A DNA stretch of 59,103 nt from the IMG/VR virus record IMGVR_UViG_3300028588_000027, positions 1-59,103 of that record; one strand, 5' to 3'. Positions 14,323-49,068 of the stretch are shown one piece after another. Under the pieces are notes generated by a model that was given only the letters and a program-made list of their open reading frames with translations, had not been told where the DNA came from and ran no database searches. The DNA comes from a virus. Its lineage: Duplodnaviria; Caudoviricetes. Made by a program: the position numbers and the translations under genes. Position 1 is the stretch's first letter. The number at the start of each line of letters is the position of its first letter.

Positions 14323-14352
14323 GTTGTTACCTTATAGAAAGAGAGGAAATTG

Positions 14353-29436: not shown

Positions 29437-30086
29437 GCCGGGCTCCCGAAGGCGGCGATGCGCTCGGCGAGAATATTGGCGTAGGTCTGCATCGCCGTCA
29501 GCTGGCGATACAGACGATTCTTTTCCAGGCAGTCCAGGCCTTCATGCGCTGGCGTCGACTGGAAAGCGCGCAACTTCTCGATGCGAGCCTTCAGTTCCTG
29601 GTGTTCCTCGAGCACGCGCTGCTGGTGCGGCGGATAGTCGGCGTTCGGCTGGCCAGCCTGGTGCTTGCCCAGCGCGTCGAGCTGTGCGCGGTGGTAGTCC
29701 AGGCCGACAGGCTTCGACGGCAGCGCGCTGGATGGGTGCACCTGGCTGTAGGACGGATGAATCACCTGGTTCGTGCTGCCCAGCGCCTCGAGCTGGCGCG
29801 CCAGCACGTAGCCCTCGAATTCCCACAGCTTTTGGCGGGCCAGGCCGACGGCGTTCTTGATGGCGTACTTGCGGCCCTTCTCGGCATCGAACAGCAGCGC
29901 GCTGACGCATGCCGACATGCCCAGCGCCACGTTGAACCCGTTTGGCAGGGTGGCGGTGGCGATCGTGGTATTCGTGTTCGGGATATGCGCCGTCTCAAAT
30001 TTCAGGCTGGCCACCAGGGCGTTGATGCGTTCTTCGGAGACGCGCGGCGCCGTCGTTTCCGCGGTTTTGGATGGGTTCAAATCCAT
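29433..30086 (-). CDS. Fusion of Gp49-family (Acb4-like) and crAss001_48/Sequestin-like domains
   Basis: LPNGF.V..G.SACVS...FDAE.G...A...A.QKLW.FEGY (N4 gp49/Sf6 gp66 family); C-terminal HQQRVLEE..EL..RIEKL..F...QL.AM..Y..IL.ERI..F. Confidence 0.75.
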   Translation of the reverse strand: MDLNPSKTAETTAPRVSEERINALVASLKFETAHIPNTNTTIATATLPNGFNVALGMSACVSALLFDAEKGRKYAIKNAVGLARQKLWEFEGYVLARQLEALGSTNQVIHPSYSQVHPSSALPSKPVGLDYHRAQLDALGKHQAGQPNADYPPHQQRVLEEHQELKARIEKLRAFQSTPAHEGLDCLEKNRLYRQLTAMQTYANILAERIAAFGSPA

Positions 30087-34914: not shown

Positions 34915-35146
34915 GGTTGTTCTCCTGCAGCGCTTTGGCTGCGTCTTTTTCCTGGAACTTCTCGAGCCAGCGCCTCCGGTCCATCATCGTCGCGGCCGGC
35001 GTGTACAGCACGCTTGCCCAATCCCAGCGCGTCGGCCGTTCGTAGATCGTGCACAAACCCATGCCTTCCTTCGCACCAGGTTGCCCTTTGAGCTTGAAGT
35101 GATCGCATGTCATGCAGACAGCGTTCGGATCGCGCCGGATGCCCAT
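34898..35146 (-). CDS. Small Cys-containing hypothetical protein
   Basis: CMTCDHF...G.C; start coupled to the upstream TAA. Confidence 0.6.
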   Translation of the reverse strand: MGIRRDPNAVCMTCDHFKLKGQPGAKEGMGLCTIYERPTRWDWASVLYTPAATMMDRRRWLEKFQEKDAAKALQENNHDKKD

Positions 35147-35379
35147 TACTCGGCCGGGGCCGCTTCGGCCTTCTTCATCACCTCGAACAGCGCCATCACG
35201 TTGCGGTACTGCGCGCCGTTGCCCTTGTTAATGTTCTGCAGCGTGCGCAGCGACAGGCCGGCATCGGTAGCGAATCGCATCCACTCTTTCGCCTTCGTGG
35301 CCGCCAAGCGCTCGCGCACATAAACCAGCGGGTCGACCACGGCAGCGGTGTCTTGCGTGGTTGCTTCGGTAGTGTTCAT
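35146..35379 (-). CDS. Cro-like HTH transcriptional regulator
   Basis: FATDAGLSLRTLQNINKG HTH; AAGGA SD; first gene of the leftward arm. Confidence 0.7.
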   Translation of the reverse strand: MNTTEATTQDTAAVVDPLVYVRERLAATKAKEWMRFATDAGLSLRTLQNINKGNGAQYRNVMALFEVMKKAEAAPAE

Positions 35380-35517
35380 TGGAAATCCTTTCTGTAGATG
35401 AATGCCGAATCGTACCATAATATTCGGAAGAAAAATGCTACAACATTTTTCTGAAAGTTATTGCGTGCCGGTTCCTCTTTCGTTACCATGGCGTTTCTTT
35501 CAGCAAAGAGGCCCAAC
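35380..35517. promoter_or_regulatory. AT-rich divergent promoter region
   Basis: Plus strand TTGCGT(35461)-17 nt-TACCAT(35484); minus strand extended -10 TGGTACGAT at about 35409-35417; the two gene arms diverge here. Confidence 0.7.
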
Positions 35518-36456
35518 ATGGAAACGAAGACAGAACAGCAGCTGCAGGTGGCGCTCGAGCAGCGCCAGCCGGCGCCGCTGGTGGTGCAAAACCCTGCGCC
35601 GATGACGCCGATGGATATGGTTGCGCGCATGGTCGACCGCGGCGCCAGCATCGAGGAACTGCAAAAGATGATGGACTTTGCCGAGCGCATCGAAAAGCGC
35701 GACGCCGAAAAGTCTTTCGTCGGCGCCATGGCGGAATTCAAGCACAACCCGCCGCGCATCGAGAAAAACCGCAGAGCAAACGTCAGCTCGAAAAAGGGCG
35801 AAGGCGCCAGCTATGCCTACCTGTACGCGAACCTGGCTGACGTATGCGCGGCCGTCGTTCACGGCCTGGCGGCCGTCGGCATCAGCCACAAGTGGCAAAC
35901 CAAGCAGCAAGACGGCCATGTTGCCGTTACCTGCACCCTGACGCATGAGCGCGGTCACAGCGAAAGCACGATGCTGTCCGCCGGCCTGGACCTGTCCGGC
36001 GGCAAGAACAACCTGCAGGCGCTGGGCTCTACCGTCTCCTACCTCGAGCGCTATACCCTGTTGGCGGCGACGGGCCTGGCGGTGGACGATGGCCAGGACG
36101 ACGACGGCGAAGCCGGCATCACGCAAGCCGAGCGCCAGGAACTGCGCGGCGCGGCAAGCGACATGCGCCGCAATGCGTCGCCGGCAGCGGCGGCCGAGAA
36201 GCGCCAGGGAAAACAGGCGCCACCGCCGTCCCAGCTGCTGCAGCGCGCACAGACCGCAGCGGACCAGGGCCGCGACGCCTTCGGCAAGTTTTGGGCAGCG
36301 CTGCAGCCGGCCGAACGCGGCACGCTGCGCCACGATGTCCCGGACCTGGAAACGCGCGTCAAGAACGCCGACAAGCGCGCCGGCGCCGGTAGCTTCGAGC
36401 GCACCTTGGACGATGGCGTGGCCGAGCTCGAGCAGCTGCACCAGGGCGGTAAATAA
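35518..36456 (+). CDS. erf: ERF-family single-strand annealing protein
   Basis: YA.LADV, VTCTLTH..GHSE, QALGSTVSYLERYTL.A..GL....DDDG; GAGG SD. Confidence 0.9.
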   Translation: METKTEQQLQVALEQRQPAPLVVQNPAPMTPMDMVARMVDRGASIEELQKMMDFAERIEKRDAEKSFVGAMAEFKHNPPRIEKNRRANVSSKKGEGASYAYLYANLADVCAAVVHGLAAVGISHKWQTKQQDGHVAVTCTLTHERGHSESTMLSAGLDLSGGKNNLQALGSTVSYLERYTLLAATGLAVDDGQDDDGEAGITQAERQELRGAASDMRRNASPAAAAEKRQGKQAPPPSQLLQRAQTAADQGRDAFGKFWAALQPAERGTLRHDVPDLETRVKNADKRAGAGSFERTLDDGVAELEQLHQGGK

Positions 36457-37076
36457 TGGCGCTGGGTCCACGCTTCCTGGATGCGCCACAAGGTTCTGAC
36501 TTGTGGTTCGAGCATCGCGCCGGCCACGCTACCGCGTCCCGCTTCATCGACATCATCAGCAGCCAGGCCAGCCGCGATGCCTATATGTGGCAGCTGGTGG
36601 CCGAGCGCCTGGCCGGCATCGGCCGCGACAGCGGCGGCCGGGCCAAAGAATGGGGCCACGAATCCGAGCCGCTGGCCCGGCGCGAGTACAGCATCCGGAC
36701 AGGCCACCGGCCGATCGAAGTCGGGTTCGCCGTGCACGGCCGCATCAAGTGGCTGGGTTGCTCGAGCGATGGCCTGGTGGGCGATGAAGGCAGCATCGAA
36801 ATCAAAAGCCCGTTCAACCACGGCATCCACGCGCGCACGCTGGCGCTGGGCATGCCAGAGGAACACAAGCCGCAAACACAGGGCAACCTGTGGGTTCTCG
36901 AGCGCAAGTGGATCGACTTTAACTCGTTCGACCCGTCGTTCCCGGAACCGTACAACCTGTTCGTTGAACACTTCGAGCGCGACGAGAAATACATCAAGTA
37001 CCTGGAAGGTGAAGTAAAAAAATTCCTGGCCGAAGTGGCCATTGCCGTCAAAGACATCAAAGCGAAGTACAACTAG
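36456..37076 (+). CDS. YqaJ/lambda-exonuclease family protein
   Basis: QGS..W...RAG..TAS, WG.E.EP.AR, SSDGLV, EIKSP, Q.QGNLWV. Confidence 0.92.
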   Translation: MALGPRFLDAPQGSDLWFEHRAGHATASRFIDIISSQASRDAYMWQLVAERLAGIGRDSGGRAKEWGHESEPLARREYSIRTGHRPIEVGFAVHGRIKWLGCSSDGLVGDEGSIEIKSPFNHGIHARTLALGMPEEHKPQTQGNLWVLERKWIDFNSFDPSFPEPYNLFVEHFERDEKYIKYLEGEVKKFLAEVAIAVKDIKAKYN

Positions 37077-37088
37077 GAGAAACCACGC

Positions 37089-38411
37089 ATGAACACCCAA
37101 GCAAACGAACCGCTGCAGGACACCAAAGTAATCGACGGCGAAATCATCGAAGTCAAGACGCCGGCCGCCGCCCTGGCGGTGCTGAACCCGGGCGAGTACG
37201 GCAAGCAGCTGATGGAGCCGTTCGCCAAGCAGCTGACGCTGGCGCGCCGCAAGGTCGGCCGCGAGAAGTTCGACATCACCACCAAGGAAGGCATGGCCAC
37301 GGCCAAGGCGCTGCGCAAGCTGTTCGTGACGATCCGCACCGATGCCGACGCCGCCAAGTCCGAAGCGAAGCGCCCGATCGACGCCGCCGGCAAGGCCATC
37401 CTGGCCGAGTTCAAGCCGATCGAGGAAGGCGCCAAGGCCGAGGAAGCGAAGATTGCCGCCGTCATCGCGGCCGAGGAAAAACGGATCGCCGACGAGAAGG
37501 CCGCAGCGATCGCCGCCGAGCGCGCGCGCATCGAGGCCATCGAAGCCCGCCTGGCGCATATCCGCAGCCTCCCCAGCAGCATGCAGATGGCCGATTCGAC
37601 CGCCATCCAGGGGAAGATCGACGCCCTGCTGGCCAAGCAGCTCGACCCGGCCCTGTACGACGAGTTCCTGGACGAAGCAGCCGAAGCGATGATCGAGACG
37701 GTCGACCAGCTGCGCGCCCACCTGCAGGCCGCCCTGGACCGCGAGGAAGCGGCCCGCAAGGCCGAGGAAACCGCGCGCGAACTGCAGCGCATGAAGGACG
37801 AGCAGGCCGAACGCGAGCGCAAGGAACGCGAAGCGCAGGCCGAGCGCGATCGCCAGGCCGAGGAAGCGCGCAAGGCGCAGGCGGAACGCGAGCGCCAGTT
37901 CGCCGAGCAGCAGGCGGCCGTCCAGCGCCAGCAGCAGCAGATGAGCGAAATCATGGCCATGAACACCCTGGCCAGCACCGCGCCGACGATCGAGCTGCAC
38001 GGCGAACTGGAGCGCCAGCTGGCCAAGGTCCAGGCATTCGACCCGGCCAGCTACGGCGACATGGCGCCCATGGCCACGATGGCGCGCGACATGGCCCTGC
38101 AGGCGCTGCAGGCGCGCTACGCGCAGCTGCCTGACCCGTACATTGCGCCAGTGCCGGCGGCCGTCGAGGAAGCGCCTGCAGCCGCAGAGCCTACCGCGCA
38201 GTACGTCGACCAGGATGCGCCCGACGTCATCACGCCGGCTGCGATCGACAACCTGACGGAAACGCTGGAAGCAAATCGCCAGGCGCCGCGCCGCCCCGAG
38301 CTGGTGGAAGTGGTCAACGTCCTGGCCAAGCACTACCAGGTGGAAAAGCTGACGGTCCTGGCCTGGATGATGGACTGGAACGTCGAAGCCATCGCCGTCA
38401 TGGAGGAATAA
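37089..38411 (+). CDS. Long coiled-coil protein of the recombination module
   Basis: Glu/Ala/Arg-rich helical sequence; AGGAG SD. Confidence 0.75.
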   Translation: MNTQANEPLQDTKVIDGEIIEVKTPAAALAVLNPGEYGKQLMEPFAKQLTLARRKVGREKFDITTKEGMATAKALRKLFVTIRTDADAAKSEAKRPIDAAGKAILAEFKPIEEGAKAEEAKIAAVIAAEEKRIADEKAAAIAAERARIEAIEARLAHIRSLPSSMQMADSTAIQGKIDALLAKQLDPALYDEFLDEAAEAMIETVDQLRAHLQAALDREEAARKAEETARELQRMKDEQAERERKEREAQAERDRQAEEARKAQAERERQFAEQQAAVQRQQQQMSEIMAMNTLASTAPTIELHGELERQLAKVQAFDPASYGDMAPMATMARDMALQALQARYAQLPDPYIAPVPAAVEEAPAAAEPTAQYVDQDAPDVITPAAIDNLTETLEANRQAPRRPELVEVVNVLAKHYQVEKLTVLAWMMDWNVEAIAVMEE

Positions 38412-38413
38412 GA

Positions 38414-38878
38414 ATGCCGGGCCGTATCTGCAAGCATGAGGGATGCGGCCGGCTTGTGACCGGCCGCGGCATGTGTCAGAACCATTACGAATATTGGCGC
38501 CGGCACAATCCCGAAAGCATCACCATGCGCGTGCGCGATAACGCCGTACTTGAAGCGATGCCGGGAACCGTTCACCAGCTGGCCGAGCGCGTCGGCATTT
38601 GCTTGGCGTCGGCCCGGCGGGCGATCGAGTCGTTGAACGTGAAGGGCATTGAGCGCCAGGCCTTCATTACCGACTACGTGCCGCCGGCCAGCAAGGGTAA
38701 GCGCTGGGAACCCATCTATGCAATGGGGAAGAAACCAGATTTGAAACTGACAGCGGAGCGCCGGCGCGAACACATGCTCATGCTGCAGCGTGCTGGCCAC
38801 GCCCGTCGCACAGGGCGCCAGGCTCCGCCTGCAGCGCGGGCCAGCTGGATCGACGCGCTAGGAGCGATCGCAGCATGA
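38414..38878 (+). CDS. Hypothetical protein with Zn-finger-like N-terminus and HTH
   Basis: C...GC......GMC..HY; TVHQLAERVGI; GAGG SD. Confidence 0.6.
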   Translation: MPGRICKHEGCGRLVTGRGMCQNHYEYWRRHNPESITMRVRDNAVLEAMPGTVHQLAERVGICLASARRAIESLNVKGIERQAFITDYVPPASKGKRWEPIYAMGKKPDLKLTAERRREHMLMLQRAGHARRTGRQAPPAARASWIDALGAIAA

Positions 38879-39147
38879 CGAAACCGATGGACCCGACGCG
38901 AATGCGGTTCAGCATGTCCGCACCGCGTCGACAGCTGGACGACGACGACAACAGCGGCCTGAACTGCCACGGCTGCATTTTCCGGCGCCAGAAAGCGGCC
39001 GTGTGCAAGGTGGCCGGCCTCGAGGCGGTCGACCGCGGCATGCGCGACTGTGATGCGGTCGACCAGTTCGGCGAAGTGGTCGTCTACGTGCCGTACAACC
39101 AGGTACAACCCGAAATAACTACCGAGGAACAAAATGAACAAAAGTAA
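38875..39147 (+). CDS. Small Cys-rich hypothetical protein
   Basis: CHGCIF...C...C; AGGAG SD. Confidence 0.6.
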   Translation: MTKPMDPTRMRFSMSAPRRQLDDDDNSGLNCHGCIFRRQKAAVCKVAGLEAVDRGMRDCDAVDQFGEVVVYVPYNQVQPEITTEEQNEQK

Positions 39148-39406
39148 ACTTTTCCCAAGCCTTGACGGAGCAACCACGCCGGCCGACATGCGCGCCGCGA
39201 TCGAGCGCCACGCGCGCAATTGCCCGGTCGTGCACCACGCGCTGCTGGTGGCCGACATCAACCAAATGACGCCGGAAGACCGCTATTCAATGCTGGCCTA
39301 CCACGCCCTGCAGGCGCTGGCCGAGACGCAGCGCGCGCTTGTCGAGATGGCCGCACGCATGCCGCCGGTGGCGATGGTCGTGCACCTGCAGGGCGTCAAG
39401 GGATGA
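39134..39406 (+). CDS. Hypothetical protein
   Basis: GAGGA SD. Confidence 0.6.
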   Translation: MNKSKLFPSLDGATTPADMRAAIERHARNCPVVHHALLVADINQMTPEDRYSMLAYHALQALAETQRALVEMAARMPPVAMVVHLQGVKG

Positions 39407-39768
39407 ATCGCCAGCTGCAGCTGCAGCTTGAGGAACCGGCGCCGCGCAAGCTGGGAGGCGGCCCGCCGGGCGTCCAGGCGGCGTGGTTGCGCGGGTTCTC
39501 CGAGCCGGTGCTGGCCGAGATTGAGGCCCGGCTGAACGAACGGCCGGGCGAGTGGCTGGGCTGGGCTGACTTCGCCGACATTCGGGAGCGCCACAACATC
39601 GGCTGCTGTATGGGGCATGTCAAATTCCACCTGGCGCAGACGGGCCGCGCGATCCGGAAAAACATCTACTACGGTTCGGAGCGCCCTGGCGATCCTGATT
39701 ACAAAGGCTACAACACGGTGTACGGGTCGACCTTGTGCGGCCCGGCGCCAGAGAGGAAGCGGAAATAA
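39403..39768 (+). CDS. Hypothetical protein
   Basis: Start MNRQLQL by ATGA overlap. Confidence 0.6.
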   Translation: MNRQLQLQLEEPAPRKLGGGPPGVQAAWLRGFSEPVLAEIEARLNERPGEWLGWADFADIRERHNIGCCMGHVKFHLAQTGRAIRKNIYYGSERPGDPDYKGYNTVYGSTLCGPAPERKRK

Positions 39769-40055
39769 TGGAAATGGAAATGGAAATTGGCACGATTGAA
39801 TCGTTCCGGTTCATCCTGAGCCCGGCCAGGCCGGCCGTGGTGAATCGGCCGCGCCGGCGCCGGCCCGCGCGGCCTGCTGCGCCAGCGCCCACCGGCAACT
39901 GGCAGCCGCTGTTCCTGGCAATCCCTGCAGGCGCGCCACGCACGACGTCGCGCCGATCGGCGTCGGCCAGGAAGCGCAAGGCGATCCGCCATTCCCTGGC
40001 CCAGCGGGTACCGGCCGGCTGGCTGACGTTTGTGCACACGGAGTATTCGCTATGA
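39768..40055 (+). CDS. Small basic protein with N-terminal major-capsid-like peptide
   Basis: TAATG coupling upstream and ATGA coupling downstream; MEMEMEIGTIESFRFILSP resembles MCP HEMELGSAESFRFILSP. Confidence 0.65.
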   Translation: MEMEMEIGTIESFRFILSPARPAVVNRPRRRRPARPAAPAPTGNWQPLFLAIPAGAPRTTSRRSASARKRKAIRHSLAQRVPAGWLTFVHTEYSL

Positions 40056-40549
40056 AGACGCCGCGCTGGGTGTTACCCATCACCAGGGAGTCGCGCGCGC
40101 ATGTCGGCCGCATCCTGGCCGAAGCCGTGCAGCTGGCGCCAGTGGGTACCGTGCTGGCCATCTTCGAGGCCCGCAAGACGCGGGACCAGGAAAGCAAGTA
40201 CCACCCGATGCTGCGCGACATCGCCGCCCACTGTACGTTTGCCGGTGCGAAGTGGTCAGAGGATGACTGGAAGCGCCTTATGGTCGACGGATTTGTGTCG
40301 GTCGAGCGCGAAGCCGCGGCCGATCGCGGCGAACCCGATCCGTTCCCGGCGCAGGCATTCCTGATGCCGAGCATGGACGGGCGCCGCGTGGTGCAGCTGG
40401 GGGCGCAAACCCGGGAGTTCACGCGCGCACAGTCGTCCGACTTCATCGAACACCTGTATGCGTTCGGCTCGGAACAGGGCGTTACCTGGTCCGAGAAAGC
40501 GCAGCGCGTGATTCGTCATTTCACGCGGGCGCGTAGGGCGGTAAAATAA
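40052..40549 (+). CDS. ninB: NinB-family recombination protein
   Basis: KTRDQ..KYHPML.DIA, W..DDWKRL, LG.QT..F......DFIE.LYAFG.EQGV.W. Confidence 0.88.
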   Translation: MKTPRWVLPITRESRAHVGRILAEAVQLAPVGTVLAIFEARKTRDQESKYHPMLRDIAAHCTFAGAKWSEDDWKRLMVDGFVSVEREAAADRGEPDPFPAQAFLMPSMDGRRVVQLGAQTREFTRAQSSDFIEHLYAFGSEQGVTWSEKAQRVIRHFTRARRAVK

Positions 40550-40600
40550 CTCAGCGGTCGCGCCCTGGTTGGCGGCCTCTGCAAAATAGCCAGGTGGACG

Positions 40601-40630
40601 AAGGCCCGCATAACGCGGGCCTTTTTCTTT
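40601..40630 (+). terminator. Intrinsic terminator at the convergence of the two arms
   Basis: AAGGCCCGC-ATAAC-GCGGGCCTT followed by a T tract. Confidence 0.75.
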
Positions 40631-43600
40631 ACGGCGTGGTGCTGGTGCGCGCCTCCACCTTCTCGTTGAAGCGCTCCATCAGGGTCCGGATGCGCAGCTC
40701 GGTTTCCTTCACCCTGGCCTTGTCGCCCTTCTCGAGCAAGTCAGACTTGCGTTTGCGCAGGGCGGCAATTTCACGCTGCACCGCCTGCGCCTGGTCGGCC
40801 ATCTTCGCTTCTGGATGGTCGGCCAGGTATTCCCGCGCGCCATCCTTCGCCTGGCGCCGCCCCTCGAGCTCCTGTTCCGCCTCATTCAACTGTTTCAGGT
40901 TGTCGTAGAAGCGCGTCGACACGCTGGACTTATCGCCGGCGTCTCCGTAGAAGCGGCCGGCCAGCGGTATTTTGTACGCTGGCAGTTCCTCGCCGGTGAT
41001 GATCGCCGAGACGGTTTGCTGTGCCTTCAATGCCTCGCGCCCCACGCCTCCGGTGAGCTGGCCAATCAGGTAATCCACCTGGTCTGGCGTCGGGCTCCAC
41101 TTCCCGGGCGTGTACTCGTTGCCGCCAGTGATCGTGTTCAGGGCGTAGGAAACGGCCTTACCGACGCCGCTGGCCGTGTCCTTCGCCCGGGTATGGCCAG
41201 GCGTCGGCTTGAGGCTGTTGAAGTCTTCCTTGGCGATCTTCTTGCCCTTCCAGTCCTCGTTCATTTCCAGCGCCACGATAGGATCGGTCACGGTGAACGA
41301 CAGCGTTTGCGTCACCGATCCGCCGGCGCCGATCGGGTTGAAGGTGTCCATGATCGCGCTGGCCAGGTGCGAGACATACTTGCCTGGCTTCTTGGCGCCG
41401 CCCAGCGCGAACTCTGTCACCAGGCGGCCGGTCGTCGGCAGGAATGCGAAGCCCAGCGGGTACGGGATCGAGACGTATTTCTTTCCCCCTACCGGGATCA
41501 CCAGGTTTTTCGCGCGCACGTACTCCGGTGGCTCCTGGTCATCGAAGCCGGCCGCCGCCAAGAGGAACGCCTGCAGTACGCCAATCATCAGGCCGCCGGC
41601 GATGATCTTCTTGCCGGCCGGGCCGTTCAGGGTCTTGGCCATACGGGCTATGCCCTGTGTTGCCGCGTTAAAGAACGCATACAGGGAGTTGACCTGTGCA
41701 CCGACGGCGCCCTTGCGGTTGAAGTTGACCGTGAGATTCTTGGCCAGGCTTGCCGCGCGCTGGGGCGTCATGCCTTCGGCCTTGGCGATCTTGTACGCGG
41801 CCATCCTGGTGACGTTCTCGAGCGCCTCGTTGTAGTCACTCAGCCAGTCCAGCACGGCCTTGCCGGCCTTGCCTGCCGGGTTCATGGTCATGGCGCGCAG
41901 TTCCTTGGCCAGCTCCTTTGCGCGGTCGTCGCTGGTACTGAACATGGCGCGGTGGCCAGTAATCCCGCCTTCCTTCTGGAACTCGGCCCACAAGGCAGCA
42001 TCGGCGCCGGTCATCTGGTCCAGGCGCAGGCCATGCTTGCCGGCGGCCAGCAGCATGCGCGATGCCTCGGCCACGAATTCGACCTGCTTGCCGGCGATCG
42101 GAGTCGATGACAGGTTGACGGCGCCCTCGCCCAAATCGCGCGTCAGGTTGACCACGCCGAAAATGGGGTTGTACTGCGTGTTGACGGACGCAAACCAGCG
42201 AGTGGCCACGCCGATAATCGACAGCACGCGGTTGACGCCATCGTTGCCGATGTTGTTGATTGTCTCGGCCATGCGGCGGGCGCGCGGCTCGTCCTTGTTG
42301 AAGAAAATGAAGCGGTCTTCGCCGCCCACGCGCACCGAGACGACATGATCGCCAAGCCGTTCGCGCAGGTCCAGCACGCGCTCCACCAGGCCGGTCTTAG
42401 GGTTGACGCGGCGCTTGCGCACTTCCTCCACCAGCGCCGCGGCGTGCGCCGGCGTCAGGCCCATGGCCTGCAGTTCAGCGTCCAGGGCGGCCGGGTTCTT
42501 TTGCGGGTTGACCGGCTTCCAGAATGCTGGGTTCGGCGCCTGCAGGGCCAGGCCATACAGCGCCAGGTCCAGACGGTTCTTTTCGCCGCGCACCACGGCG
42601 CGTTCGCGCGCCATGGCCAGGTTGGCCAGGATGTTCACGACCTTGCGTTTCGAGCCCATGCGGCGCTTGCTGGCCGGGCCGCGCACGGAGAAGCCGCGGC
42701 CGGTACCGTTGCCGCCGCCGGCGTCCATGTCCTCGCGCATCAGCGGGACATAGTGCTGGTACGTGGCATTCCAGGCGTCGATAGTGTTCTGCGATTCCAG
42801 GCCATAGTCGACCAGCATCTGCTGGGTTTGCGCCGTCATGGCGTCGACGCGCGCGGCCAGGGCGTTATACGCGGCGCGCTTTGCCGGCGGCAGGCCGGCC
42901 AGGTAGTTGCGGGCGTCGGCCGTGTCGATGCCCGAACCGCCATCCTGCATGGCTGGATCGTTCGGATTGATGCTGGCGATCTGGTCGTTTGCTTCCTCGG
43001 CGTGGCGCATGTGCAGGAACTGCTCGAATTCCTCGAGCGCGACGCCGCGCGCCTGCATGTCGGTCAGCAGCGGGCGCAGCTCGCTGTTCAGGTATTCCTT
43101 GAAACCGGTTGCTGCGCGGCCGTGGAACAGTTCTTCCTGCAGGTAGGGGTCCCACTTGTCCTCGAGGCCGGTCACGACGTCGCGCACGGTGTCAACGGTG
43201 CGTTTGATGTCGATATGCTTGTCCTGCAGGACTTGAATGACGTCATCCAGGCGCGTCATGTCTGGCGCGGTCCAGGTTGCCGCCGGCGGCGGGTTGGCCA
43301 GCGCGCGCAGGGCATAATCGCCCTGGCCAAAAGCCTGCTCCACCAGCATGCGCGGAGACAGCTTCTCGCCGGTTCCTTCCAGCACGGCCTGCAGGCCGCG
43401 CAGCACAGCCGCATCCGACGGCAGGCCCAGCCAGCCGCGGGCCTTCTGCACCAGTTCGCCCAGCCAGGTCTTGGCCTTGGCCACCCACGAACCGGCCTCA
43501 TAGCGCTCGGACAGGATGCGCGTCGCGTTGACGGCCCAATACTCGGACGGGTTCGACAGCTGGTAGTGCTGGTCGTAGTCCAGCACGCCGTCGGCGAAGG

Positions 43601-46600
43601 CCTGCTTCGCACGCTTGGCTGCGGCGCTGCTGCTGGCCATGGTGAGCAAGTCGTCCATGGCGGTGCGGGTCTTCTCGTCGGCGGCAGCGTAGGCGCGGCC
43701 GAATGCCTTGCGCCAGGCCTGCACAATCTTGGCCTGGACGTCGGCCGGCATCATCCGTTCAGTGTGGTGCAGGATTTCGTGCACGGCCGTGCCTTCGTTC
43801 GCCGCGCCTTTGAACAGCGATATCACGCGCGACACCGGGTTGTACATGCCGGCGGTACCGCTTTCGCCGGCGGCGCGCAGGGAAATGCCCAAGTCCTCGG
43901 CGATCGCCGGGTTCTTGTTCAGCGCCCACAAGGCAAAGCTGACGGTCGCCTCGTCCAGTTCGCCAGTGCGGCGCGCGCGCATCAGGCGCTCCATGATCCA
44001 TTCCGGGCCACGCTCGCGCGGCTTCGGGGTTGCCTTGCTGGCGTTGCGGTCCTCGAGCGCGGACACGATGACGTCGACGCGCAACTGGAAGTCCTTGTCG
44101 GTAATCCGGCCTTCCTCGAGCGCGCGGCGCGCCGCTTTCAGCTTGGCCAAGGTGGCCACGCGCTTTGGCTCGCTGTCGGTCGGCGTGCCGGCCATCAGCG
44201 GCGGCAGCTGGTCGGAAACGTCGCGCAGCATCGACGGGTTCGACGGGTCGAACATGCCGGCGTTGCCGATGGCCGACTTCACCTGCTCAGGGGAGAACAC
44301 GACATACTGGTTTTCGTTGGCGCTTCCTTCGTAGCCGGTTTCCTCGTTGCCGTTGAAAGCGCTGGTGATGATAAGCCCGTCGTGGCCGTTTTCCTTCGCG
44401 TAGGCGATCGCGTCTTCGACGGCATACGATTCATAGTCGAGCTTCCCATTCAGGTCGATCCGGTGCGGGTTCTGCAGCGACAAATAAACCGGCATGACAT
44501 GCTCGCCCTCGCCGTAATAAATGCCGCTGCCACCGCTGGCATACCACGATGCCTCGTCTGTCTCGTCGGTGAACCAGATTGCGCCTTCGACGGATTCACC
44601 ATTACGGAAGGCGTCGCCCTCGAACTCGCCGCTGCGGCCGTGATAGACAACCATCGGCTGGCCACCTTTCATCACTTTGCTATTGCCGAACCATTTTTTA
44701 AAAGCTGCCGTATTGGTCTGGCGCTCGGCGATGTCGCGCAGCGTTGGCGCCACGATCGGGCGCCCGCGCTCGTCGGTCTGGCCGTCGAACTCGCGCCAGA
44801 ACTTGATTTGCGCCATGAAGTCCGGCGCCACCAGGTTGCCGTTGGTGTCGCGGATCGGCCGGCGCACGCCGTCGACCTCGATGGTGCGTTGGTCGGTGAT
44901 GTCGCGCAGCACCGTCTCGCCCAGCCCTGCAGAGACTTCATCCAGGGCGCCGGCTTCGTCCATGAATGCCGTGCGATCGGCGGCCGACTTGAACAGGAAC
45001 CCGCGCAGCGCGCCGCCGCCCACGAACTTGTTGTACCGGCCACCGTGTTGCTTGGCGATGGCCAGCGCCTGCTTGTACGTCTCCGGACTGGTGCGGTTGA
45101 GCATGGCGGCGCCGAACAGCGCCTCGCCGGTCTTCGTGTGCTTGAACTCGAACTGCGCATAGAAGCGCTCGGCGCCGGTGGCGCCTTCGGCCGCGGCGCG
45201 TACCTTCTTGCTGATTGGCGCGGCCGGCTTGGCTTCCTCGATTGCGATGTCTTCGGCTACCGTCTTGACGCGGCCCGGTACCGTGCTGTGTTCGAGGCGG
45301 TCGAACAGGTCTTCCACCGTCTCGGCGCTGACGTAATCGCGGCGCACCTGGTTGGGCGCCTTCTCCGGATCGGCGATCTTGTCCAGGATGATAATTTTCG
45401 TCATGGCGCCGGTACCGGCCCGGCCGAACGTGGCGGCCGGCAGATTGATTTCCGCTACCAGGTGCATGTCCTTCGGCGCATCCTCGGCGTAGAGGAAAGC
45501 ATCAAGGCGCTTGTCTGCCATGTTCCCGGTCGGCAGCAGCGCCACGATCCGGCCGCCTTCGCGCAGGTGCTTGAAGGCTTTGGCCAAGTGTGGCGTCGAC
45601 AGCGAACCGCCTTTGCCGAATGGCGGGTTCATTACGATGGCGTCGTACTTGTTGGAAACGTGTAGGTCTTCAAAGTGCTGTTGCTCGAAGCGGGCATTGC
45701 TGCCTTCGATGACCAGGCGGGCGCGGTTAATCAGCGGCGTCTCCGGCTCCACGATCGTCTTGTTCGTCTGCGCCGGGAACCAGCGCGCGATGGCGCCGTG
45801 GCCGGCGGACGGCTCCATGACGTCCTCGCCCACGCGAATATCGGCCCACTCGACCATCTTCATGCCGACGGGCTCGGGCGTGGCAAAGTAATCATTGCCC
45901 TCGGCCGACTTGCTGGCGCTGTTGCGCTTCAGCTGGCTGTAGTAGAAGGTCTTCGCCTTGTCCCATTCGGTCAGCGCCTTGGCCGTGTTGCGGTCCCGGG
46001 CCTTGCCGCCAGTGCCGTCGGTGTCGCTGACTGTCGCCGGCGCGCTGTCCTGGAAGGCTTCAATGATTGCTTCCTTCAGGCCGCGGGCCTGGTCGCCCAT
46101 GGCCAGCGCCTCGGCCGTGTCGGCGCGCTGCGCGATCGTCTCGGCAAAGGTGCGGCGTTCCCATTCGGTCCCGGTGTTCGCGTAGTGGAACAGGGCGTTC
46201 GATACCTGGCCGGTGCGGTAGATGCGGCCCTCGAGCTGAATCAGGGCGGTAGGCGTGCCTTGCATGCCGATGTTGACCATCACGCGGCGGTACTTGCCGG
46301 TGGTGTCGTGCAGGCTGATACCCTCGCGGCCCTTGTCGGACTGCAGGATGATGAGGCGAGCGCTGCCGTTGTCGTCGTTGAACTGGACTTTGTTGGCCTC
46401 GAGCTGCTTGGCCGGTACCGAACCGTTGTGCACCAGGGCGTCAGGGAATGCCGCCTGCAGCGTCTGCAGCGCCGATCGCGCCGGCACTTGTAGGCTGGCG
46501 AGGTCCGGGCGCGCGGCCTGAAATTCGCGGCCCAGCGCGGCCAGGTCGATTTCCTTGGGTGCGTTGTTCTCGTAGACCGTCGACACGCCGTTGATGCCGC

Positions 46601-48779
46601 GCATGCTGAACGGGTTGAAGGAACCGCCTTTTTTGTAGTCGTGCACGACGACGACCTTGCGGCCGGCGTCCAGCTGCGCCTGGATGCTGGGAATGGCTTC
46701 CTCGGCCTTGATCGCCTCGAGCAAGTACCGGCGCGACAGGTAATCGAACTGCTTCATCACCGGCTGATACAGGTGCTTGAATTTCGGGTGCTCGCGCATG
46801 AACTCGAGGCCTTCGTCAATGGCCGAACCCAGCGCGGATTCCACCATGACGAACTTGCGCTCGTAGTCGGCTTCCACCTCGAGCATGCGGCCCGACAGGG
46901 CGCCCTCGGCCTTGAGCCAGTTATTGAACTGGCGCGCCATCAGTCCCTGGTCGACGTTGCCGTCTGGCTCGGTCAGCTTGTGGTACCGGATGCGATAGCC
47001 GAAGTGCTGCACGAAGAAATGCGCGCGGCCGTCCTGGTTGCTGTTGCCGATCCGGCCGCCGTCGCCGTAGTTGAACAGGTAGCCCTCGGCATAGTCCACC
47101 GCCTTGACGTAGGCGAATGGCGTCGCCGACAGCATCAGGGTTTTCGGGCGCTTGATGGGGGCGTTGGCGATCGCCTCGTACTCGGCGCGCTGGCTTTCCT
47201 CGCGCTCGCTGATTTCCTTCATCAGCTTGTCGAACTCGGTACGCGCGGCCTGGTTGCCGTCGGCCTTGGCCGGCGCCGGCGGCAGCGCGGCCAGGCGGTC
47301 GTACAGGTCGCGGTTCTTCATCCGGGTGTAGGCAGACCATCCGGACGGGTGATAGGTGAGTGCCTGCAGGGACTCAAGCGCCAGCGTCTTCTTGCCGTCG
47401 GCCGCCGCCATGACGCGGTGCGATTCGTCCAGCGTCACCAAGTCCCAATTGCGGTCTGCGAGGGTACGGTTCTGGCCAAAGTTGGCGTAGGTGGTGATGA
47501 CGATGCCGGCGTCGCCGTTGTCGTCCAGGCCGTCGAGCATCTTCGCTTCCAGGCCCAGCTCGGCCAGCGAACGAATCCAGTCCTGGCCAATGCCGTCGTT
47601 CGGTACCACGACAATCTGATTGTCTTTGCCCTGGCGGGCGAAGCGGGCGATGATACCGCCGCCGGTGAAGGTCTTGCCGGTACCGGTCCCGTTGGTGAAC
47701 ATGACGCCCGGCTGCTTTTCCGGGTTGGCGAATCGGGCTTCGGCAAAGGCGACGTCTTCGCGCTGACCGTCCAGCAGGTACGGCAGCGTGGCGTCGATGT
47801 TGGCGCGGTCGCCCGGCTTGACGGGTACCGCGTTGGCTTTCTTCTGTGCTGCGCGCTTTCGGTCTAGCGGGTTGCGTGCGCCAGCAACTGCAGCAGGTAA
47901 TGCTTCTGCGTCGGGTCCAGGTTGCGATTCTTGGCGCCCAGCTCGGCCGCTTCCTCCGGCGTCTCCATCGGTGGAATCGCTTGCGCCAGGTCGCCCTTGC
48001 CCGGCTTGGCCAGGTACGTCGATATCGCTTTGCGCTCCACCAGCAACGGCACGACGTCCAGATACGCCAGCGCTACCGGCGCTTCCGCGCCCTGGCTGGT
48101 CAGTCGCTCCATCAGTGCCTGGTGCTCGTCCGTCAATTCCTGGTCCGACATCGAAAAGACTCGCTCGAGCTCCGAGTTCACCATCTGCCCGGTCGCCTTC
48201 ACGCCCTGCCACACTTCCGCGGGTACCATCAACATTGTTCTCTCCCTCGAGTTTTCCATCCCGGTAATCACGGACAAAGCGCGTGATGTAGGGTTTCATA
48301 TTAGCAGCAACTGGCTTGCCGAATTTGTCCACGACGGCCTGCACCACGGCGCGCATAACGTCCATGATGTCGCTGCCGGCGCTGGCGTAATCCTTCGCCG
48401 CTTCCTGGAACAGCGGCTTTGCCTTCGCATAGGTTTCATCGTTGAACGTCAGGCCGCTGTTGAGCTTCGTGCCGCCGAACAGCTCGCCCAGCGCGTCGAT
48501 GGCATTCACCGTGCCGCTGGCCAGGTTCTTGACGGCCGACACGGCCGCATCGCCGGCGCCGCGTTTCTTGCCGCCGCGGGCGGCGTACTGGTCGGCGACG
48601 GTCTGTTCGATGCTGGCCTGCTCCATCTTGGCCAGGTCGATCTTATCCAGGACTACCTGCTCAATCGCCGCGGCCGGGGAGAACCCGCGGGCCTCGTACT
48701 CGTCGGCCAGCGTGAGCATTTCGTTAATCGGTAACTTGTCGGCCAGCGCCAGGCGGTCGATGCAGTTAGTAAATGGCAT
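40629..48779 (-). CDS. DarB-like polyvalent injected protein: SF2 helicase, N6-adenine methyltransferase, ART-like domain, HExxH peptidase, LPD38-like C-terminus
   Basis: NGTGTGKT, DESH, SAT, QLEGRIYR; YFATP, EPSAGHG, NPPF; FKKWFG...VYHG; HEILHH; VNFNRKG...LYAFFNA. Start MPFTNC after a GGAG SD. Confidence 0.88.
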   Translation of the reverse strand: MPFTNCIDRLALADKLPINEMLTLADEYEARGFSPAAAIEQVVLDKIDLAKMEQASIEQTVADQYAARGGKKRGAGDAAVSAVKNLASGTVNAIDALGELFGGTKLNSGLTFNDETYAKAKPLFQEAAKDYASAGSDIMDVMRAVVQAVVDKFGKPVAANMKPYITRFVRDYRDGKLEGENNVDGTRGSVAGREGDRADGELGARASLFDVGPGIDGRAPGTDGATDQPGRGSAGSAGVSGRRAVAGGAQSDIDVPGQAGQGRPGASDSTDGDAGGSGRAGRQESQPGPDAEALPAAVAGARNPLDRKRAAQKKANAVPVKPGDRANIDATLPYLLDGQREDVAFAEARFANPEKQPGVMFTNGTGTGKTFTGGGIIARFARQGKDNQIVVVPNDGIGQDWIRSLAELGLEAKMLDGLDDNGDAGIVITTYANFGQNRTLADRNWDLVTLDESHRVMAAADGKKTLALESLQALTYHPSGWSAYTRMKNRDLYDRLAALPPAPAKADGNQAARTEFDKLMKEISEREESQRAEYEAIANAPIKRPKTLMLSATPFAYVKAVDYAEGYLFNYGDGGRIGNSNQDGRAHFFVQHFGYRIRYHKLTEPDGNVDQGLMARQFNNWLKAEGALSGRMLEVEADYERKFVMVESALGSAIDEGLEFMREHPKFKHLYQPVMKQFDYLSRRYLLEAIKAEEAIPSIQAQLDAGRKVVVVHDYKKGGSFNPFSMRGINGVSTVYENNAPKEIDLAALGREFQAARPDLASLQVPARSALQTLQAAFPDALVHNGSVPAKQLEANKVQFNDDNGSARLIILQSDKGREGISLHDTTGKYRRVMVNIGMQGTPTALIQLEGRIYRTGQVSNALFHYANTGTEWERRTFAETIAQRADTAEALAMGDQARGLKEAIIEAFQDSAPATVSDTDGTGGKARDRNTAKALTEWDKAKTFYYSQLKRNSASKSAEGNDYFATPEPVGMKMVEWADIRVGEDVMEPSAGHGAIARWFPAQTNKTIVEPETPLINRARLVIEGSNARFEQQHFEDLHVSNKYDAIVMNPPFGKGGSLSTPHLAKAFKHLREGGRIVALLPTGNMADKRLDAFLYAEDAPKDMHLVAEINLPAATFGRAGTGAMTKIIILDKIADPEKAPNQVRRDYVSAETVEDLFDRLEHSTVPGRVKTVAEDIAIEEAKPAAPISKKVRAAAEGATGAERFYAQFEFKHTKTGEALFGAAMLNRTSPETYKQALAIAKQHGGRYNKFVGGGALRGFLFKSAADRTAFMDEAGALDEVSAGLGETVLRDITDQRTIEVDGVRRPIRDTNGNLVAPDFMAQIKFWREFDGQTDERGRPIVAPTLRDIAERQTNTAAFKKWFGNSKVMKGGQPMVVYHGRSGEFEGDAFRNGESVEGAIWFTDETDEASWYASGGSGIYYGEGEHVMPVYLSLQNPHRIDLNGKLDYESYAVEDAIAYAKENGHDGLIITSAFNGNEETGYEGSANENQYVVFSPEQVKSAIGNAGMFDPSNPSMLRDVSDQLPPLMAGTPTDSEPKRVATLAKLKAARRALEEGRITDKDFQLRVDVIVSALEDRNASKATPKPRERGPEWIMERLMRARRTGELDEATVSFALWALNKNPAIAEDLGISLRAAGESGTAGMYNPVSRVISLFKGAANEGTAVHEILHHTERMMPADVQAKIVQAWRKAFGRAYAAADEKTRTAMDDLLTMASSSAAAKRAKQAFADGVLDYDQHYQLSNPSEYWAVNATRILSERYEAGSWVAKAKTWLGELVQKARGWLGLPSDAAVLRGLQAVLEGTGEKLSPRMLVEQAFGQGDYALRALANPPPAATWTAPDMTRLDDVIQVLQDKHIDIKRTVDTVRDVVTGLEDKWDPYLQEELFHGRAATGFKEYLNSELRPLLTDMQARGVALEEFEQFLHMRHAEEANDQIASINPNDPAMQDGGSGIDTADARNYLAGLPPAKRAAYNALAARVDAMTAQTQQMLVDYGLESQNTIDAWNATYQHYVPLMREDMDAGGGNGTGRGFSVRGPASKRRMGSKRKVVNILANLAMARERAVVRGEKNRLDLALYGLALQAPNPAFWKPVNPQKNPAALDAELQAMGLTPAHAAALVEEVRKRRVNPKTGLVERVLDLRERLGDHVVSVRVGGEDRFIFFNKDEPRARRMAETINNIGNDGVNRVLSIIGVATRWFASVNTQYNPIFGVVNLTRDLGEGAVNLSSTPIAGKQVEFVAEASRMLLAAGKHGLRLDQMTGADAALWAEFQKEGGITGHRAMFSTSDDRAKELAKELRAMTMNPAGKAGKAVLDWLSDYNEALENVTRMAAYKIAKAEGMTPQRAASLAKNLTVNFNRKGAVGAQVNSLYAFFNAATQGIARMAKTLNGPAGKKIIAGGLMIGVLQAFLLAAAGFDDQEPPEYVRAKNLVIPVGGKKYVSIPYPLGFAFLPTTGRLVTEFALGGAKKPGKYVSHLASAIMDTFNPIGAGGSVTQTLSFTVTDPIVALEMNEDWKGKKIAKEDFNSLKPTPGHTRAKDTASGVGKAVSYALNTITGGNEYTPGKWSPTPDQVDYLIGQLTGGVGREALKAQQTVSAIITGEELPAYKIPLAGRFYGDAGDKSSVSTRFYDNLKQLNEAEQELEGRRQAKDGAREYLADHPEAKMADQAQAVQREIAALRKRKSDLLEKGDKARVKETELRIRTLMERFNEKVEARTSTTP
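47864..48235 (-). CDS. Nested out-of-frame gene (123 aa) inside the polyvalent protein linker
   Basis: GAGGGAGAG SD before ATG; G/C-ending codons favour this frame; globular helical composition. Confidence 0.65.
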   Translation of the reverse strand: MLMVPAEVWQGVKATGQMVNSELERVFSMSDQELTDEHQALMERLTSQGAEAPVALAYLDVVPLLVERKAISTYLAKPGKGDLAQAIPPMETPEEAAELGAKNRNLDPTQKHYLLQLLAHATR

Positions 48780-49068
48780 GGGCGGCAATCTCCATCAGGA
48801 TAGCGGTAATGATTTCTTCCTCGTCGTCGCTGTCGACGTCGAGGGGAATAAAATATTGCTGGGAAGAACGACTATGATACCGGGCAACACCATCGCCAGG
48901 TGCAAAAGGTGGGACTGGCGCGGCGCTGGTGGCGCGCATGTCCAGCTCGGCCCAGCCGACAGCCACATGGAACGACCTGGCCTGCAGGTCGAGCTCGGCC
49001 CAGCCCACCGCGACATGGTGCGGCCGGGCCAGGACGTCGAGCGCGGCCCATCCGACGAAGACCGCCAT
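48766..49068 (-). CDS. Small protein with three V.VGWA.LD repeats and acidic C-terminus
   Basis: Start coupled to the upstream TAA; 16-aa repeats visible in DNA and protein. Confidence 0.65.
   Translation of the reverse strand: MAVFVGWAALDVLARPHHVAVGWAELDLQARSFHVAVGWAELDMRATSAAPVPPFAPGDGVARYHSRSSQQYFIPLDVDSDDEEEIITAILMEIAAHAIY

Follow-up and report, generated by a model that had tools for sequence, protein, structure and literature searches.

Why would a small gene in the recombination arm of a tailed phage begin with what looks like a piece of the phage's own major capsid protein (MCP)? The gene lies in a window of 59,103 nt that spans the whole of IMG/VR record IMGVR_UViG_3300028588_000027 and represents a phage of 59 kb that carries MCP, portal/adaptor and large terminase genes itself. 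An earlier note on this DNA had pointed out the likeness and proposed that the gene encodes an early decoy of the capsid. Here we ask whether the gene and the likeness are real, whether the copied piece follows the capsid protein of each phage that carries it, and what the copy could be for.

An accessory gene in the recombination operon

The open reading frame, here called ORF95 (P0001), runs from an ATG at 39768 to a TGA at 40055 on the plus strand, just as the earlier note had it, and encodes 95 amino acids with a pI of 12.0 and the N-terminus MEMEMEIGTIESFRFILSP. It is coupled to its neighbors on both sides, sharing the sequence TAATG (39766-39770) with the upstream stop codon and ATGA (40052-40055) with the start of the NinB gene. 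A purine-rich, Shine-Dalgarno-like site, GAGAGGAAG (39751-39759 on the plus strand, with GAGG/AGGA at 39753-39757), is located about 10 nt 5' of the ATG. The gene opens with three copies of the hexamer ATGGAA (39768-39785, plus strand), which encode MEMEME and provide three in-frame ATG starts. Residues 2-23 (39771-39836, plus strand) make up an N-terminal module that is homologous to a hairpin of the MCP, as described below, and that includes the 16-residue core originally noted (39777-39824). Searches of Pfam-A and PHROGs returned no family for ORF95 or P0002 at E <= 0.01. ORF95 has an unusual coding signal, with GC fractions by codon position of 0.635/0.625/0.781 compared with 0.627/0.431/0.866 in the MCP gene. 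The ESM Atlas model of the protein, which comes from a language model, has a low confidence (pLDDT 0.34); a structural resemblance to FlgM-like proteins that depends on this model was treated as noise, and so was a resemblance to Y2 transposase fragments, for which the best Atlas feature score of 0.80 is at chance level.

The description of the surroundings as a recombination arm holds well. ORF95 belongs to a nine-gene operon (35461-40549, plus strand) that encodes an Erf-like annealing protein, a RecE-like exonuclease, a 440-aa protein, an HNH/HTH protein, the products of three small genes, ORF95 and NinB. Among the 54 open reading frames kept by the GC-position filter, this operon is the only plus-strand block apart from 14350-15363; the latter is an antisense frame of a scaffold-like gene at 14353-15366 on the minus strand. 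The gene directly upstream of ORF95 (39403-39768, plus strand) is translationally coupled to it and encodes 122 amino acids with no family match, and the final gene (40052-40549, plus strand) encodes a NinB/Orf recombination mediator (PF05772, E 1.4e-17; phrog_72, E 1.6e-18). A terminator-like hairpin of 10 pairs, seven of them G-C, with a T-run (40600-40624, plus strand) ends the operon, and no promoter-like or terminator-like sites were reported within 38597-40519. From its position in the operon we infer that ORF95 is expressed early.

The gene is variable in its presence. In one 39.4-kb X2 contig, an 861-nt stretch (39335-40195) is replaced by 623 other letters, with flanks that are about 92% alike. 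None of the five nearest relatives searched has ORF95; the MCPs of the nearest relatives are 74-76% identical to that of this phage (four aligned, A5). In genome G005, both ORF95 and the upstream 122-aa gene are missing, and NinB stands immediately after the gene on the 5' side of the insert. Genome G001, which carries a homologous small gene, has a Lar restriction-alleviation gene two genes upstream of it, and a Tad2-like gene is located elsewhere in the ORF95 genome. Searches of INPHARED phages with both DNA and protein gave no match to ORF95. Pattern searches confirmed no homolog among 50 matches in genome contigs, among 246 and 244 matches in metagenome contigs, or among 41 matches in viral contigs with the A4 query; with the A1 query, 81 matches in viral contigs yielded four confirmed cases, all of which are MCP genes. 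One further candidate, G002:37750-37911 (E 1e-3), was rejected as an Arg-rich stretch in a non-coding frame. ORF95 is a real accessory gene of the plus-strand recombination operon, and it behaves as a gene of the conflict type.

Homology to a hairpin of the major capsid protein

The MCP had been correctly identified: the protein of 342 amino acids encoded at 13294-14322 on the minus strand matches phrog_1357 ('major head protein') with E 2.7e-58. Its placement among the N4-gp56 coats, with their HK97 fold, draws on phrog_1357, its name in sequence sources, AF2 and Foldseek. The AF2 model, built with 125 sequences, has a pLDDT of 85.8, and in Foldseek the predicted fold matches the capsid chains of N4, B2, Moo19 and DEV (9e99, 9d82, 9d7z and 9bgn, respectively). 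The match to the family is full-length, and the family itself is large, with 2,759 matches at E <= 1e-10. Over 125 MCPs, the most invariant stretch is residues 228-249 (13576-13641, minus strand), which are predicted to form a hairpin with one strand at 232-236, a turn at 237-238 and a second strand at 239-244. Residues E232, G234, R240, S244 and L247 are invariant in all 125 sequences, the motif of the hairpin reads E-x-G-S-x-E-x-[FY]-R-F-[IV]-x-S-P-[ED]-L, and by alignment the pattern extends to the solved coats of N4 and Moo19. In N4 gp56 the hairpin aligns with roughly residues 280-300, immediately ahead of the A-domain loop 300-328 described in PMC11768535.

Residues 4-19 of ORF95 match the MCP at 13 of 16 positions, nine of which are consecutive, and the DNA beneath agrees at 37 of 48 bases; both the match and the three synonymous differences named by the earlier note were found. 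The same codon is used at 10 of the 13 identical residues, compared with 7.5 expected from the codon usage of the genome (P = 0.11), so the likeness of the DNA is no greater than the match in protein needs. Pairwise searches depend on the direction of the query. With ORF95 as the query, BLASTP finds the MCP at E 9e-5, and with the MCP as the query it finds ORF95 at only 25.4 bits and E 0.22, which is still the best non-self match of the MCP; without composition correction, an Arg-rich frame at 4854-5132 scores slightly higher than the MCP does. Profile comparisons settle the homology. Aligned by hhalign with 125 MCPs, the family of ORF95 gives a probability of 96% and E 2.8e-9 over 22 columns, and an HMM built from the N-termini of the four other family members and run against 56 proteins recovers the MCP of this phage (E 1.4e-8; runner-up, E 2.2). 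Across residues 2-23 of ORF95 and 228-249 of the MCP, identity is 59%, and the invariant E, G, E, R and I are common to both. The match is a trait of the whole family of small proteins, beyond the single pair.

The earlier note had allowed for such matches arising by chance, and a spurious ORF in a GC-rich genome could produce one: ORF95 is rich in Arg, Pro and Ala with high GC at the second codon position, the MCP query reaches only the modest BLASTP value given above, and six-frame translations of this genome (811 ORFs, 99,341 aa) do have six 9-mers in common. Five of these six are rich in Arg and Ala and lie mostly in non-coding frames, however, and ESFRFILSP is the sole one with seven different residues; no 10-mers are held in common in that comparison. 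The frame and the motif are kept in five homologs with synonymous substitutions under the conserved residues, the profile E-values are 2.8e-9 and 1.4e-8, and the opposite-strand ORF (39811-40446) overlaps the Pfam-matched NinB gene. We therefore regard a chance match as very improbable, and the self-comparison and family HMM bear out that the likeness of ORF95 and the MCP is not accidental.

Outside the module, the remaining 70 or so residues of ORF95 are unrelated to the MCP, as had been claimed: profiles of the middle and the C-terminus have no MCP match, and C-terminal HMMs of the family, run against 56 proteins, did not retrieve the MCP. Two apparent similarities were rejected. That between residues 81-92 (VPAGWLTFVHTE) and MCP residues 194-205 (IEQAFLVFAHTD) is at chance level (P 0.013-0.018 and a probability of 2.5% in hhalign alternative alignments), and hhalign did not reproduce the other, between the two C-termini (GWMAVAEVGVSAL in the MCP). 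At 95 amino acids and 22 aligned columns, compared with about 340-400 amino acids and an HK97 fold for a full-length MCP, ORF95 has the E, G, E, R and I positions of the hairpin in common with the N4-gp56 coats (PHROG 1357; 9e99 and 9lbz of N4, 9d7z of Moo19, 9d82 of B2 and 9bgn of DEV) without having their fold, and is not a capsid protein.

Conservation of the copy across small proteins and capsid proteins

ORF95 is the founder of a family of five small, basic proteins, the other four being singletons of 85-107 amino acids with the same architecture; these five are singletons among 5.8 billion clusters. All have a pI of 11.2-12.0, two conserved basic stretches and a C-terminal hydrophobic strand, the stretches and the strand being unrelated to the MCP, and indels among them are of whole residues. 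Mean pairwise identity drops from 0.62 in the N-terminal module to 0.32 in the middle part and rises again to 0.50 at the C-terminus. The peptide is retained in all five, with synonymous changes beneath the conserved residues, so that a check proposed in the earlier note is passed. Compared with its homolog L007, ORF95 has 11 of 16 identical residues and five synonymous codon changes in the motif, and 28 of 67 identical residues with 19 synonymous changes outside it. Since the changes under conserved residues are synonymous, selection acts on the protein.

The family-invariant residues E6, G8, I10, E11, R14 and I16 correspond to E232, G234, position 236, E237, R240 and I242 of the MCP, all of which are invariant or nearly so across the MCP family. 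The small proteins retain the E, G, E, R and I of the MCP motif throughout and its F and [ST]-P mostly, and P0003 also retains the HEME that precedes the module. Other features are peculiar to the small proteins. Position 10 is Ile in all five of them and in none of the 125 MCPs; Ser235, present in 117 of the 125 MCPs, is replaced by T, Y, F, T and I, leaving no Ser at position 9; E246 is missing in all five, and L247 is kept in just two. By comparison of these sequences we show that ORF95 begins, over some 20 residues, with an old copy, maintained by selection, of the predicted beta-hairpin in which the MCP family varies least.

The earlier note had suggested that the peptide should co-vary with the MCP of each phage, and this was not seen in the two genomes that have both genes. 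The MCP of the ORF95 phage is among the nine of 125 most like the copy (top 7%), whereas in G001, the one further genome where the two genes occur together, the phage's own MCP is among the nine least like it (bottom 7%), so that 116 of the other 124 MCPs resemble the G001 copy more closely. The G001 copy has 7 of 20 identities with its own MCP, compared with 13 of 20 between the small proteins of G001 and ORF95. The peptide follows the consensus of the MCP family together with features of its own. In both genomes where the context of the small gene is known (n = 2), the MCP is of the N4-gp56 type.

Possible roles of the hairpin copy

We favor, with a probability of about 0.45, the reading that ORF95 acts on its own as a competitive mimic of the MCP hairpin, with a target that we leave unassigned. 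The exposed hairpin would occupy the site where the hairpin of new, unassembled MCP normally docks, and the conserved basic RSASARKRK and hydrophobic C-terminal RVPAGW.xF would add a second contact, for example with nucleic acid or with ORF95 itself. Recognition would go through residues invariant in the whole family, rather than through the variant of its own phage. Within this reading, an immune sensor or a holdase of the host that examines capsid protein as it is made has slightly better than even odds of being the target, which would make ORF95 an anti-defence antagonist; the MCP itself, through a contact of its A-domain, falls a little short of even odds, and ORF95 would then resemble a microProtein that caps assembly. 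A target on the MCP side must be a folding or assembly intermediate, because in the folded MCP the place of the hairpin is already filled. The copy has kept E, E and R, which are polar and invariant in the MCP, across a divergence that erased the middle of the protein, and this argues that the hairpin is still making MCP-like contacts. Also in favor of the mimic are protein-level selection on the gene, the pairing of the best-conserved parts of both protein families, the N4-gp56-type MCP of both known carriers and the accessory, conflict-type behavior of the gene. On the other side, imitating an immune trigger might activate the sensor rather than block it, and the copy is not faithful, differing at Ile10, Ser235, E246 and L247. 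The tiny family, the unusual coding signal, the low-confidence model and the poor likeness of the G001 copy to its own MCP likewise count against the mimic. A complex prediction for the MCP (alignment A6) and ORF95 (A2), run without controls, returned 'no answer' with a score of 0.00 against a mark of 0.32, which speaks neither for binding nor against it.

Competition by a short copy is known from the satellite SaPI1. The C-terminal 16 residues of CpmB, an RIIK helix-and-hook, copy the C-terminus of the scaffolding protein of the helper 80alpha and compete for coat protein, with the binding known from cryo-EM and genetics (PMC5644958). ORF95 is likewise small and carries at one terminus some 20 residues homologous to a conserved element of a capsid assembly protein, here the MCP hairpin as a candidate binding element, and competition for the partner of that element is our proposal by analogy. 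The two differ in that CpmB copies a scaffold and ORF95 a coat protein, in that CpmB is a satellite gene acting on a helper while ORF95 belongs to a phage with its own capsid, portal and terminase genes, and in that binding by ORF95 is putative.

Hosts can read a short stretch or surface of an MCP. The Gol peptide of T4 triggers Lit. CapRelSJ46 senses both the MCP and the small protein Gp54, the latter being described as unrelated to the MCP (review PMC13728456). ORF95 copies the most invariant part of the MCP, which by analogy is the kind of target that a sensor would favor. According to the preprint on HigBAC (bioRxiv 10.1101/2024.02.24.581848), this toxin-antitoxin-chaperone system senses unfolded beta-strands of the lambda tail protein gpV, and a gpV peptide alone binds and competes in ITC. 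On that account, a host holdase whose ligands are linear beta-strand stretches in a structural protein still being made can be engaged by a free peptide of hairpin length; its target is a tail protein, however, with a motif of spaced aromatic residues unlike the MCP hairpin, and a plain copy would be harmful there because binding triggers the defence. The literature search returned no published anti-defence protein that copies an MCP peptide.

Several other readings have to be weighed against this competition by a free hairpin. It is possible, if rather less than probable, that a fragment of an MCP gene was exapted and now serves the fold or self-association of ORF95 in a function independent of the capsid, such as nucleic acid binding by a regulator through its Arg/Lys-rich stretches. 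The high pI, the basic stretches and C-terminal strand unrelated to the MCP, the hairpin residues peculiar to the family (Ile10, the non-Ser position 9 and the loss of E246), the failure of the G001 copy to follow its own MCP and the location in an operon of DNA metabolism would all agree with this, yet no other part of the small proteins is as well conserved as the hairpin, the residues kept are exactly the polar ones invariant in MCPs (E, G, E and R) beside a middle only 32% identical, and both known carriers have MCPs of the N4-gp56 type (only n = 2). We consider it unlikely that ORF95 is an antagonist decoy, a copy of the hairpin with a few altered residues that binds a capsid-reading sensor or holdase of the host without activating it; it would then belong to a broader class of mini-proteins, not yet described in print, that phages build from parts of their capsid proteins.

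The stricter form proposed in the earlier note, a special case of hairpin mimicry in which an early copy of the phage's own peptide pre-occupies a sensor of the CapRel or Lit type and co-varies with the MCP, is improbable in our judgment. ORF95 does agree with its own MCP at the variable positions 230, 231, 238 and 243, in keeping with the rank of that MCP among the nine best; the gene is in an accessory location, and the same genome has the Tad2-like gene and a fusion of an N4 gp49-family and a crAss001_48 domain. This fusion has been read, in an earlier note, as a putative sponge. Capsid-sensing immunity is also documented (review PMC13728456). The low rank of the G001 MCP speaks against such a decoy, however, as do codon identities with no sign of recent copying or conversion; there is no known sensor for MCPs of the N4-gp56 type, and a copy acting as an agonist would harm the phage. 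Interference, in which the hairpin would poison the assembly of capsids in co-infecting phages whose coats are of the N4-gp56 type, we regard as quite improbable. A copy closer to the family consensus than to the phage's own variant, in an accessory cassette, would suit that role, but self-poisoning is expected because the hairpin of the own MCP is nearly identical (13/16), and a late block of a rival's assembly in a shared cell brings little gain.

A free-standing mimic of the capsid hairpin would have no close precedent that we could find: the literature searched (full texts) yielded no small phage protein bearing a coat-protein peptide, and by analogy the nearest case is the copied scaffold tail of the satellite, with no published description found of a coat-protein element carried by a phage. 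ORF95 by itself is a lead rather than a discovery, because its family is tiny and its function still putative. If the mimicry is true, the phage has put part of its shell protein to another use, which could be to blind a host factor that reads capsids, or to control or poison capsid assembly. The copied segment also flags residues 228-249 of the MCP as a stretch of candidate functional importance, a possible hot spot, in the N4-gp56 coat family.

ORF95 and its protein family

We show that ORF95 is a real gene and that its N-terminus copies the most invariant hairpin of the phage coat protein; the copy is old and under selection. The gene runs on the plus strand from an ATG at 39768 to a TGA at 40055, with its start overlapping the upstream stop (TAATG), its stop overlapping the start of NinB (ATGA), and a GAGG/AGGA site located about 10 nt 5' of the ATG; the description in the earlier note was right in every detail checked. 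The reading frame opens with three tandem ATGGAA hexamers (39768-39785, encoding MEMEME), which offers three in-frame starts and could change in length by slippage. The codons GAAATGGAA for E-M-E are found in the major capsid protein (MCP) gene as well as in this repeat. An unusually high GC content at codon position 2 (0.625) and a poor ESM Atlas model (pLDDT 0.34) count against an ordinary gene, and are compatible with an Arg/Pro/Ala-rich, largely disordered protein. ORF95 has no match among Pfam or PHROG families.

HMMER, run exhaustively against 1.84 billion representatives, identified five proteins, two of them forming the query profile, and a 5.8-billion-cluster index contained the same five, every one a one-contig singleton. 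The members (ORF95 itself, or P0001, with 95 aa; P0002, 107; P0003, 93; P0004, 85; P0005, 91) have a pI of 11.2-12.0, and the others are 40-59% identical to ORF95. All five share the N-terminal motif x-E-[IV]-G-x-I-E-x-[FI]-R-[FL]-I-x-[ST]-[PE] followed by a basic stretch, the segment P-R...R-[ST]-[AT]-S-[AS]-R-[KR]-R-K, and the C-terminal end R-V-x-x-G-[WFY]-x-x-F; W-x-[PS]-[LM]-[FY] is present in four, with P0002 retaining the Trp alone. The motif is the best conserved part, with a mean pairwise identity of 0.62 compared to 0.32 and 0.50 elsewhere. When ORF95 is aligned to its homolog at L007:1771-2031, identity covers 11 of the 16 motif residues and 28 of the 67 residues outside the motif; synonymous codon changes number 5 in the motif and 19 outside it. 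Identical residues encoded with synonymous changes indicate purifying selection on a protein.

The capsid hairpin and its copy

Residues 4-19 of ORF95 (EMEIGTIESFRFILSP) match residues 230-245 of the MCP (EMELGSAESFRFILSP; 342 aa, 13294-14322, minus strand) at 13 of 16 positions, and 37 of the 48 underlying bases agree, confirming the observation of a capsid-hairpin copy. The same codon is used at 10 of the 13 identical residues, where 7.5 are expected from codon usage alone (P = 0.11), which gives no hint of recent copying of DNA or of gene conversion and places the resemblance in the protein sequence. A six-frame self-comparison of the window (811 ORFs, 99,341 aa) found six common 9-mers, all but one of them rich in Arg/Ala, and no common 10-mer; the exception, ESFRFILSP, is the only complex one. 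BLASTP is asymmetric, with an E-value of 9e-5 when ORF95 is the query and of 0.22 when the MCP is the query, yet ORF95 is still the best non-self match of the MCP. The match is settled by profile comparisons.

In a profile-profile alignment of the five small proteins with 125 MCPs, residues 2-23 correspond to MCP residues 228-249 with 96% probability (E 2.8e-9). A hidden Markov model of the four other N-termini, with ORF95 left out, detects the window's MCP at E 1.4e-8 in a set of 56 proteins, where the runner-up has E 2.2, and at E 2.1e-7 in the six-frame set. P0003 also retains H-E-M-E preceding the motif. As judged from these profiles, the capsid resemblance is a trait of the whole small-protein family, whose invariant residues E6, G8, I10, E11, R14 and I16 align with MCP positions 232, 234, 236, 237, 240 and 242.

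The MCP matches phrog_1357, and its relatives (2,759 matches at E <= 1e-10) are named 'N4-gp56 family major capsid protein' by their sources. An AlphaFold2 model built with 125 sequences (pLDDT 85.8, pTM 0.80) finds the coats of N4, B2, Moo19 and DEV in Foldseek, with E-values of about 1e-20 to 1e-22. The copied segment is a predicted beta-hairpin (strand 232-236, turn 237-238, strand 239-244; local pLDDT ~91-94) preceded by a helix at 204-211. No other stretch of the MCP family is as invariant as this hairpin: E232, G234, R240, S244 and L247 are present in 125 of 125 sequences, and S235, E237, F241 and P245 are near-invariant. Its pattern, GE[VI]G[ST]IDKFRIIQVPEM, also persists in the solved coat structures of N4 and Moo19, where it lies, at an approximate position taken from the alignment, directly before the A-domain loop, which is placed at 300-328 for N4 (PMC11768535).

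The earlier note had proposed, among other readings, an early capsid decoy and predicted that the peptide would co-vary with each phage's own MCP. Two genomes with both genes could be compared, the window and G001, the IMG/VR record behind L007 and L008. The copy in the window agrees with its own MCP at 13 of 20 positions, a level reached by only 9 of the 125 MCPs. In G001, MCP GEIGKVERLRYVLSPDL and small protein AEIGTIENFRFIMTP agree at 7 of 20 positions, and 116 of the 125 aligned MCPs, a set that includes G001's own, are closer to the small protein than is its own MCP. Co-variation was thus not seen in these two genomes. Ile at position 10 occurs in all five small proteins and in none of the 125 MCPs, Ser at position 9 is absent from the small proteins, and MCP E246 is lost in all five. 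The hairpin module follows the consensus of the MCP family, not the variant of its own phage.

Gene neighborhood and accessory status

The window is a complete virus record of 59,103 bases with a G+C content of 64.8%, classified in IMG/VR as linear and 100% complete. An exact direct repeat of 126 bases (1-126 and 58976-59101) links both record ends, and is either a short terminal repeat or, with the genome being circular or permuted in a circular way, an assembly overlap. The minus strand holds 44 of the 54 ORFs kept by a GC-position filter. Two giant minus-strand ORFs (40629-48788, 2,719 aa; 52192-57807, 1,871 aa) account for nearly one quarter of the genome. The coat is N4-type, and none of the ORFs listed is the size of an N4-like virion RNA polymerase. 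Also on the minus strand, within 28951-30086, are a Tad2-like domain (PF11195, E 2.8e-24; residues 75-160 of a 161-aa protein) and, in the next gene, a fusion of the N4 gp49/Sf6 gp66 family and crAss001_48 (Pfam PF13876, E 1.2e-15; PF21825, E 3e-18).

ORF95 belongs to a plus-strand block (35461-40549) that encodes an Erf-like annealing protein (phrog_155, E 8.6e-32), a RecE-like exonuclease (phrog_149, E 3.2e-32), a 440-aa protein, an HNH/HTH-like protein, three small genes, ORF95 and, as the last gene, NinB (PF05772, E 1.4e-17), and that ends at a terminator-like hairpin (40600-40624). A site scan reported no promoter-like or terminator-like sites within 38597-40519. A small repressor-like gene (35146-35418, minus strand; phrog_9425, E 2.7e-5) is oriented divergently to the Erf operon (35461, plus strand), and the 42-base gap between them is likely the control region of the plus-strand operon; a simple promoter scan of this gap found no site.

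ORF95 is a rare accessory gene. The family profile detected no homolog in five related records (G002-G006, of which one has terminal repeats and one a completeness rating of 100%), matching only MCP hairpins and one Arg-rich artefact; the four of these records that were aligned have MCPs 74-76% identical to the window's. In G005, NinB is directly 3' of the homolog of window gene 39134-39406. Relative to that record, which lacks both genes, ORF95 and the 122-aa gene coupled to its 5' side (39403-39768, plus strand; no Pfam or PHROG match) therefore form an insert. In a 39.4-kb contig of run X2, whose two flanks are about 92% alike to the window, 39335-40195 (861 bases) is exchanged for 623 different letters. 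The exchanged interval extends from the last part of gene 39134-39406, across the 122-aa gene and ORF95, into the first part of NinB, and resembles a hot spot for swaps immediately 5' of NinB. The neighbors of P0004 in G001 differ from those of ORF95: compared by eye only, its 213-aa neighbor is distinct from the 122-aa gene; a Lar restriction-alleviation family gene (L007:677-1051, plus strand; PF14354, E 1.4e-11) lies two genes upstream; and a DUF3307 membrane protein (L007:2682-3056) follows downstream after a ~650-base stretch without a convincing ORF.

Possible action of ORF95

The interpretation in the earlier note is partly supported; a decoy in the strict sense, which gets no support from co-variation in the two genomes compared, is an unlikely candidate. 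We tentatively favor, at a probability of about 0.45, a candidate mechanism in which ORF95 would act through its hairpin as a competitive mimic, mainly because the polar MCP invariants survived a divergence in which the middle of the protein was erased. In the chief rival, which we consider rather unlikely, the hairpin would have been exapted as a building block by a basic protein with a function unconnected with capsids.

Our full-text literature search found no small phage protein with a coat-protein peptide. The closest published logic is that of SaPI1 CpmB, whose competition for the coat protein relies on a 16-residue copy of the C-terminus of the helper scaffold (PMC5644958); mimicry by ORF95 would be analogous. 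The target of a competitive mimic could be a host factor reading new coat protein, examples of possible host targets being capsid-sensing immunity (CapRel), as outlined in a review (PMC13728456), and a holdase that senses unfolded strands of a tail protein, as described in a preprint (bioRxiv 10.1101/2024.02.24.581848). Alternatively, the target could be the coat protein's own A-domain contact.
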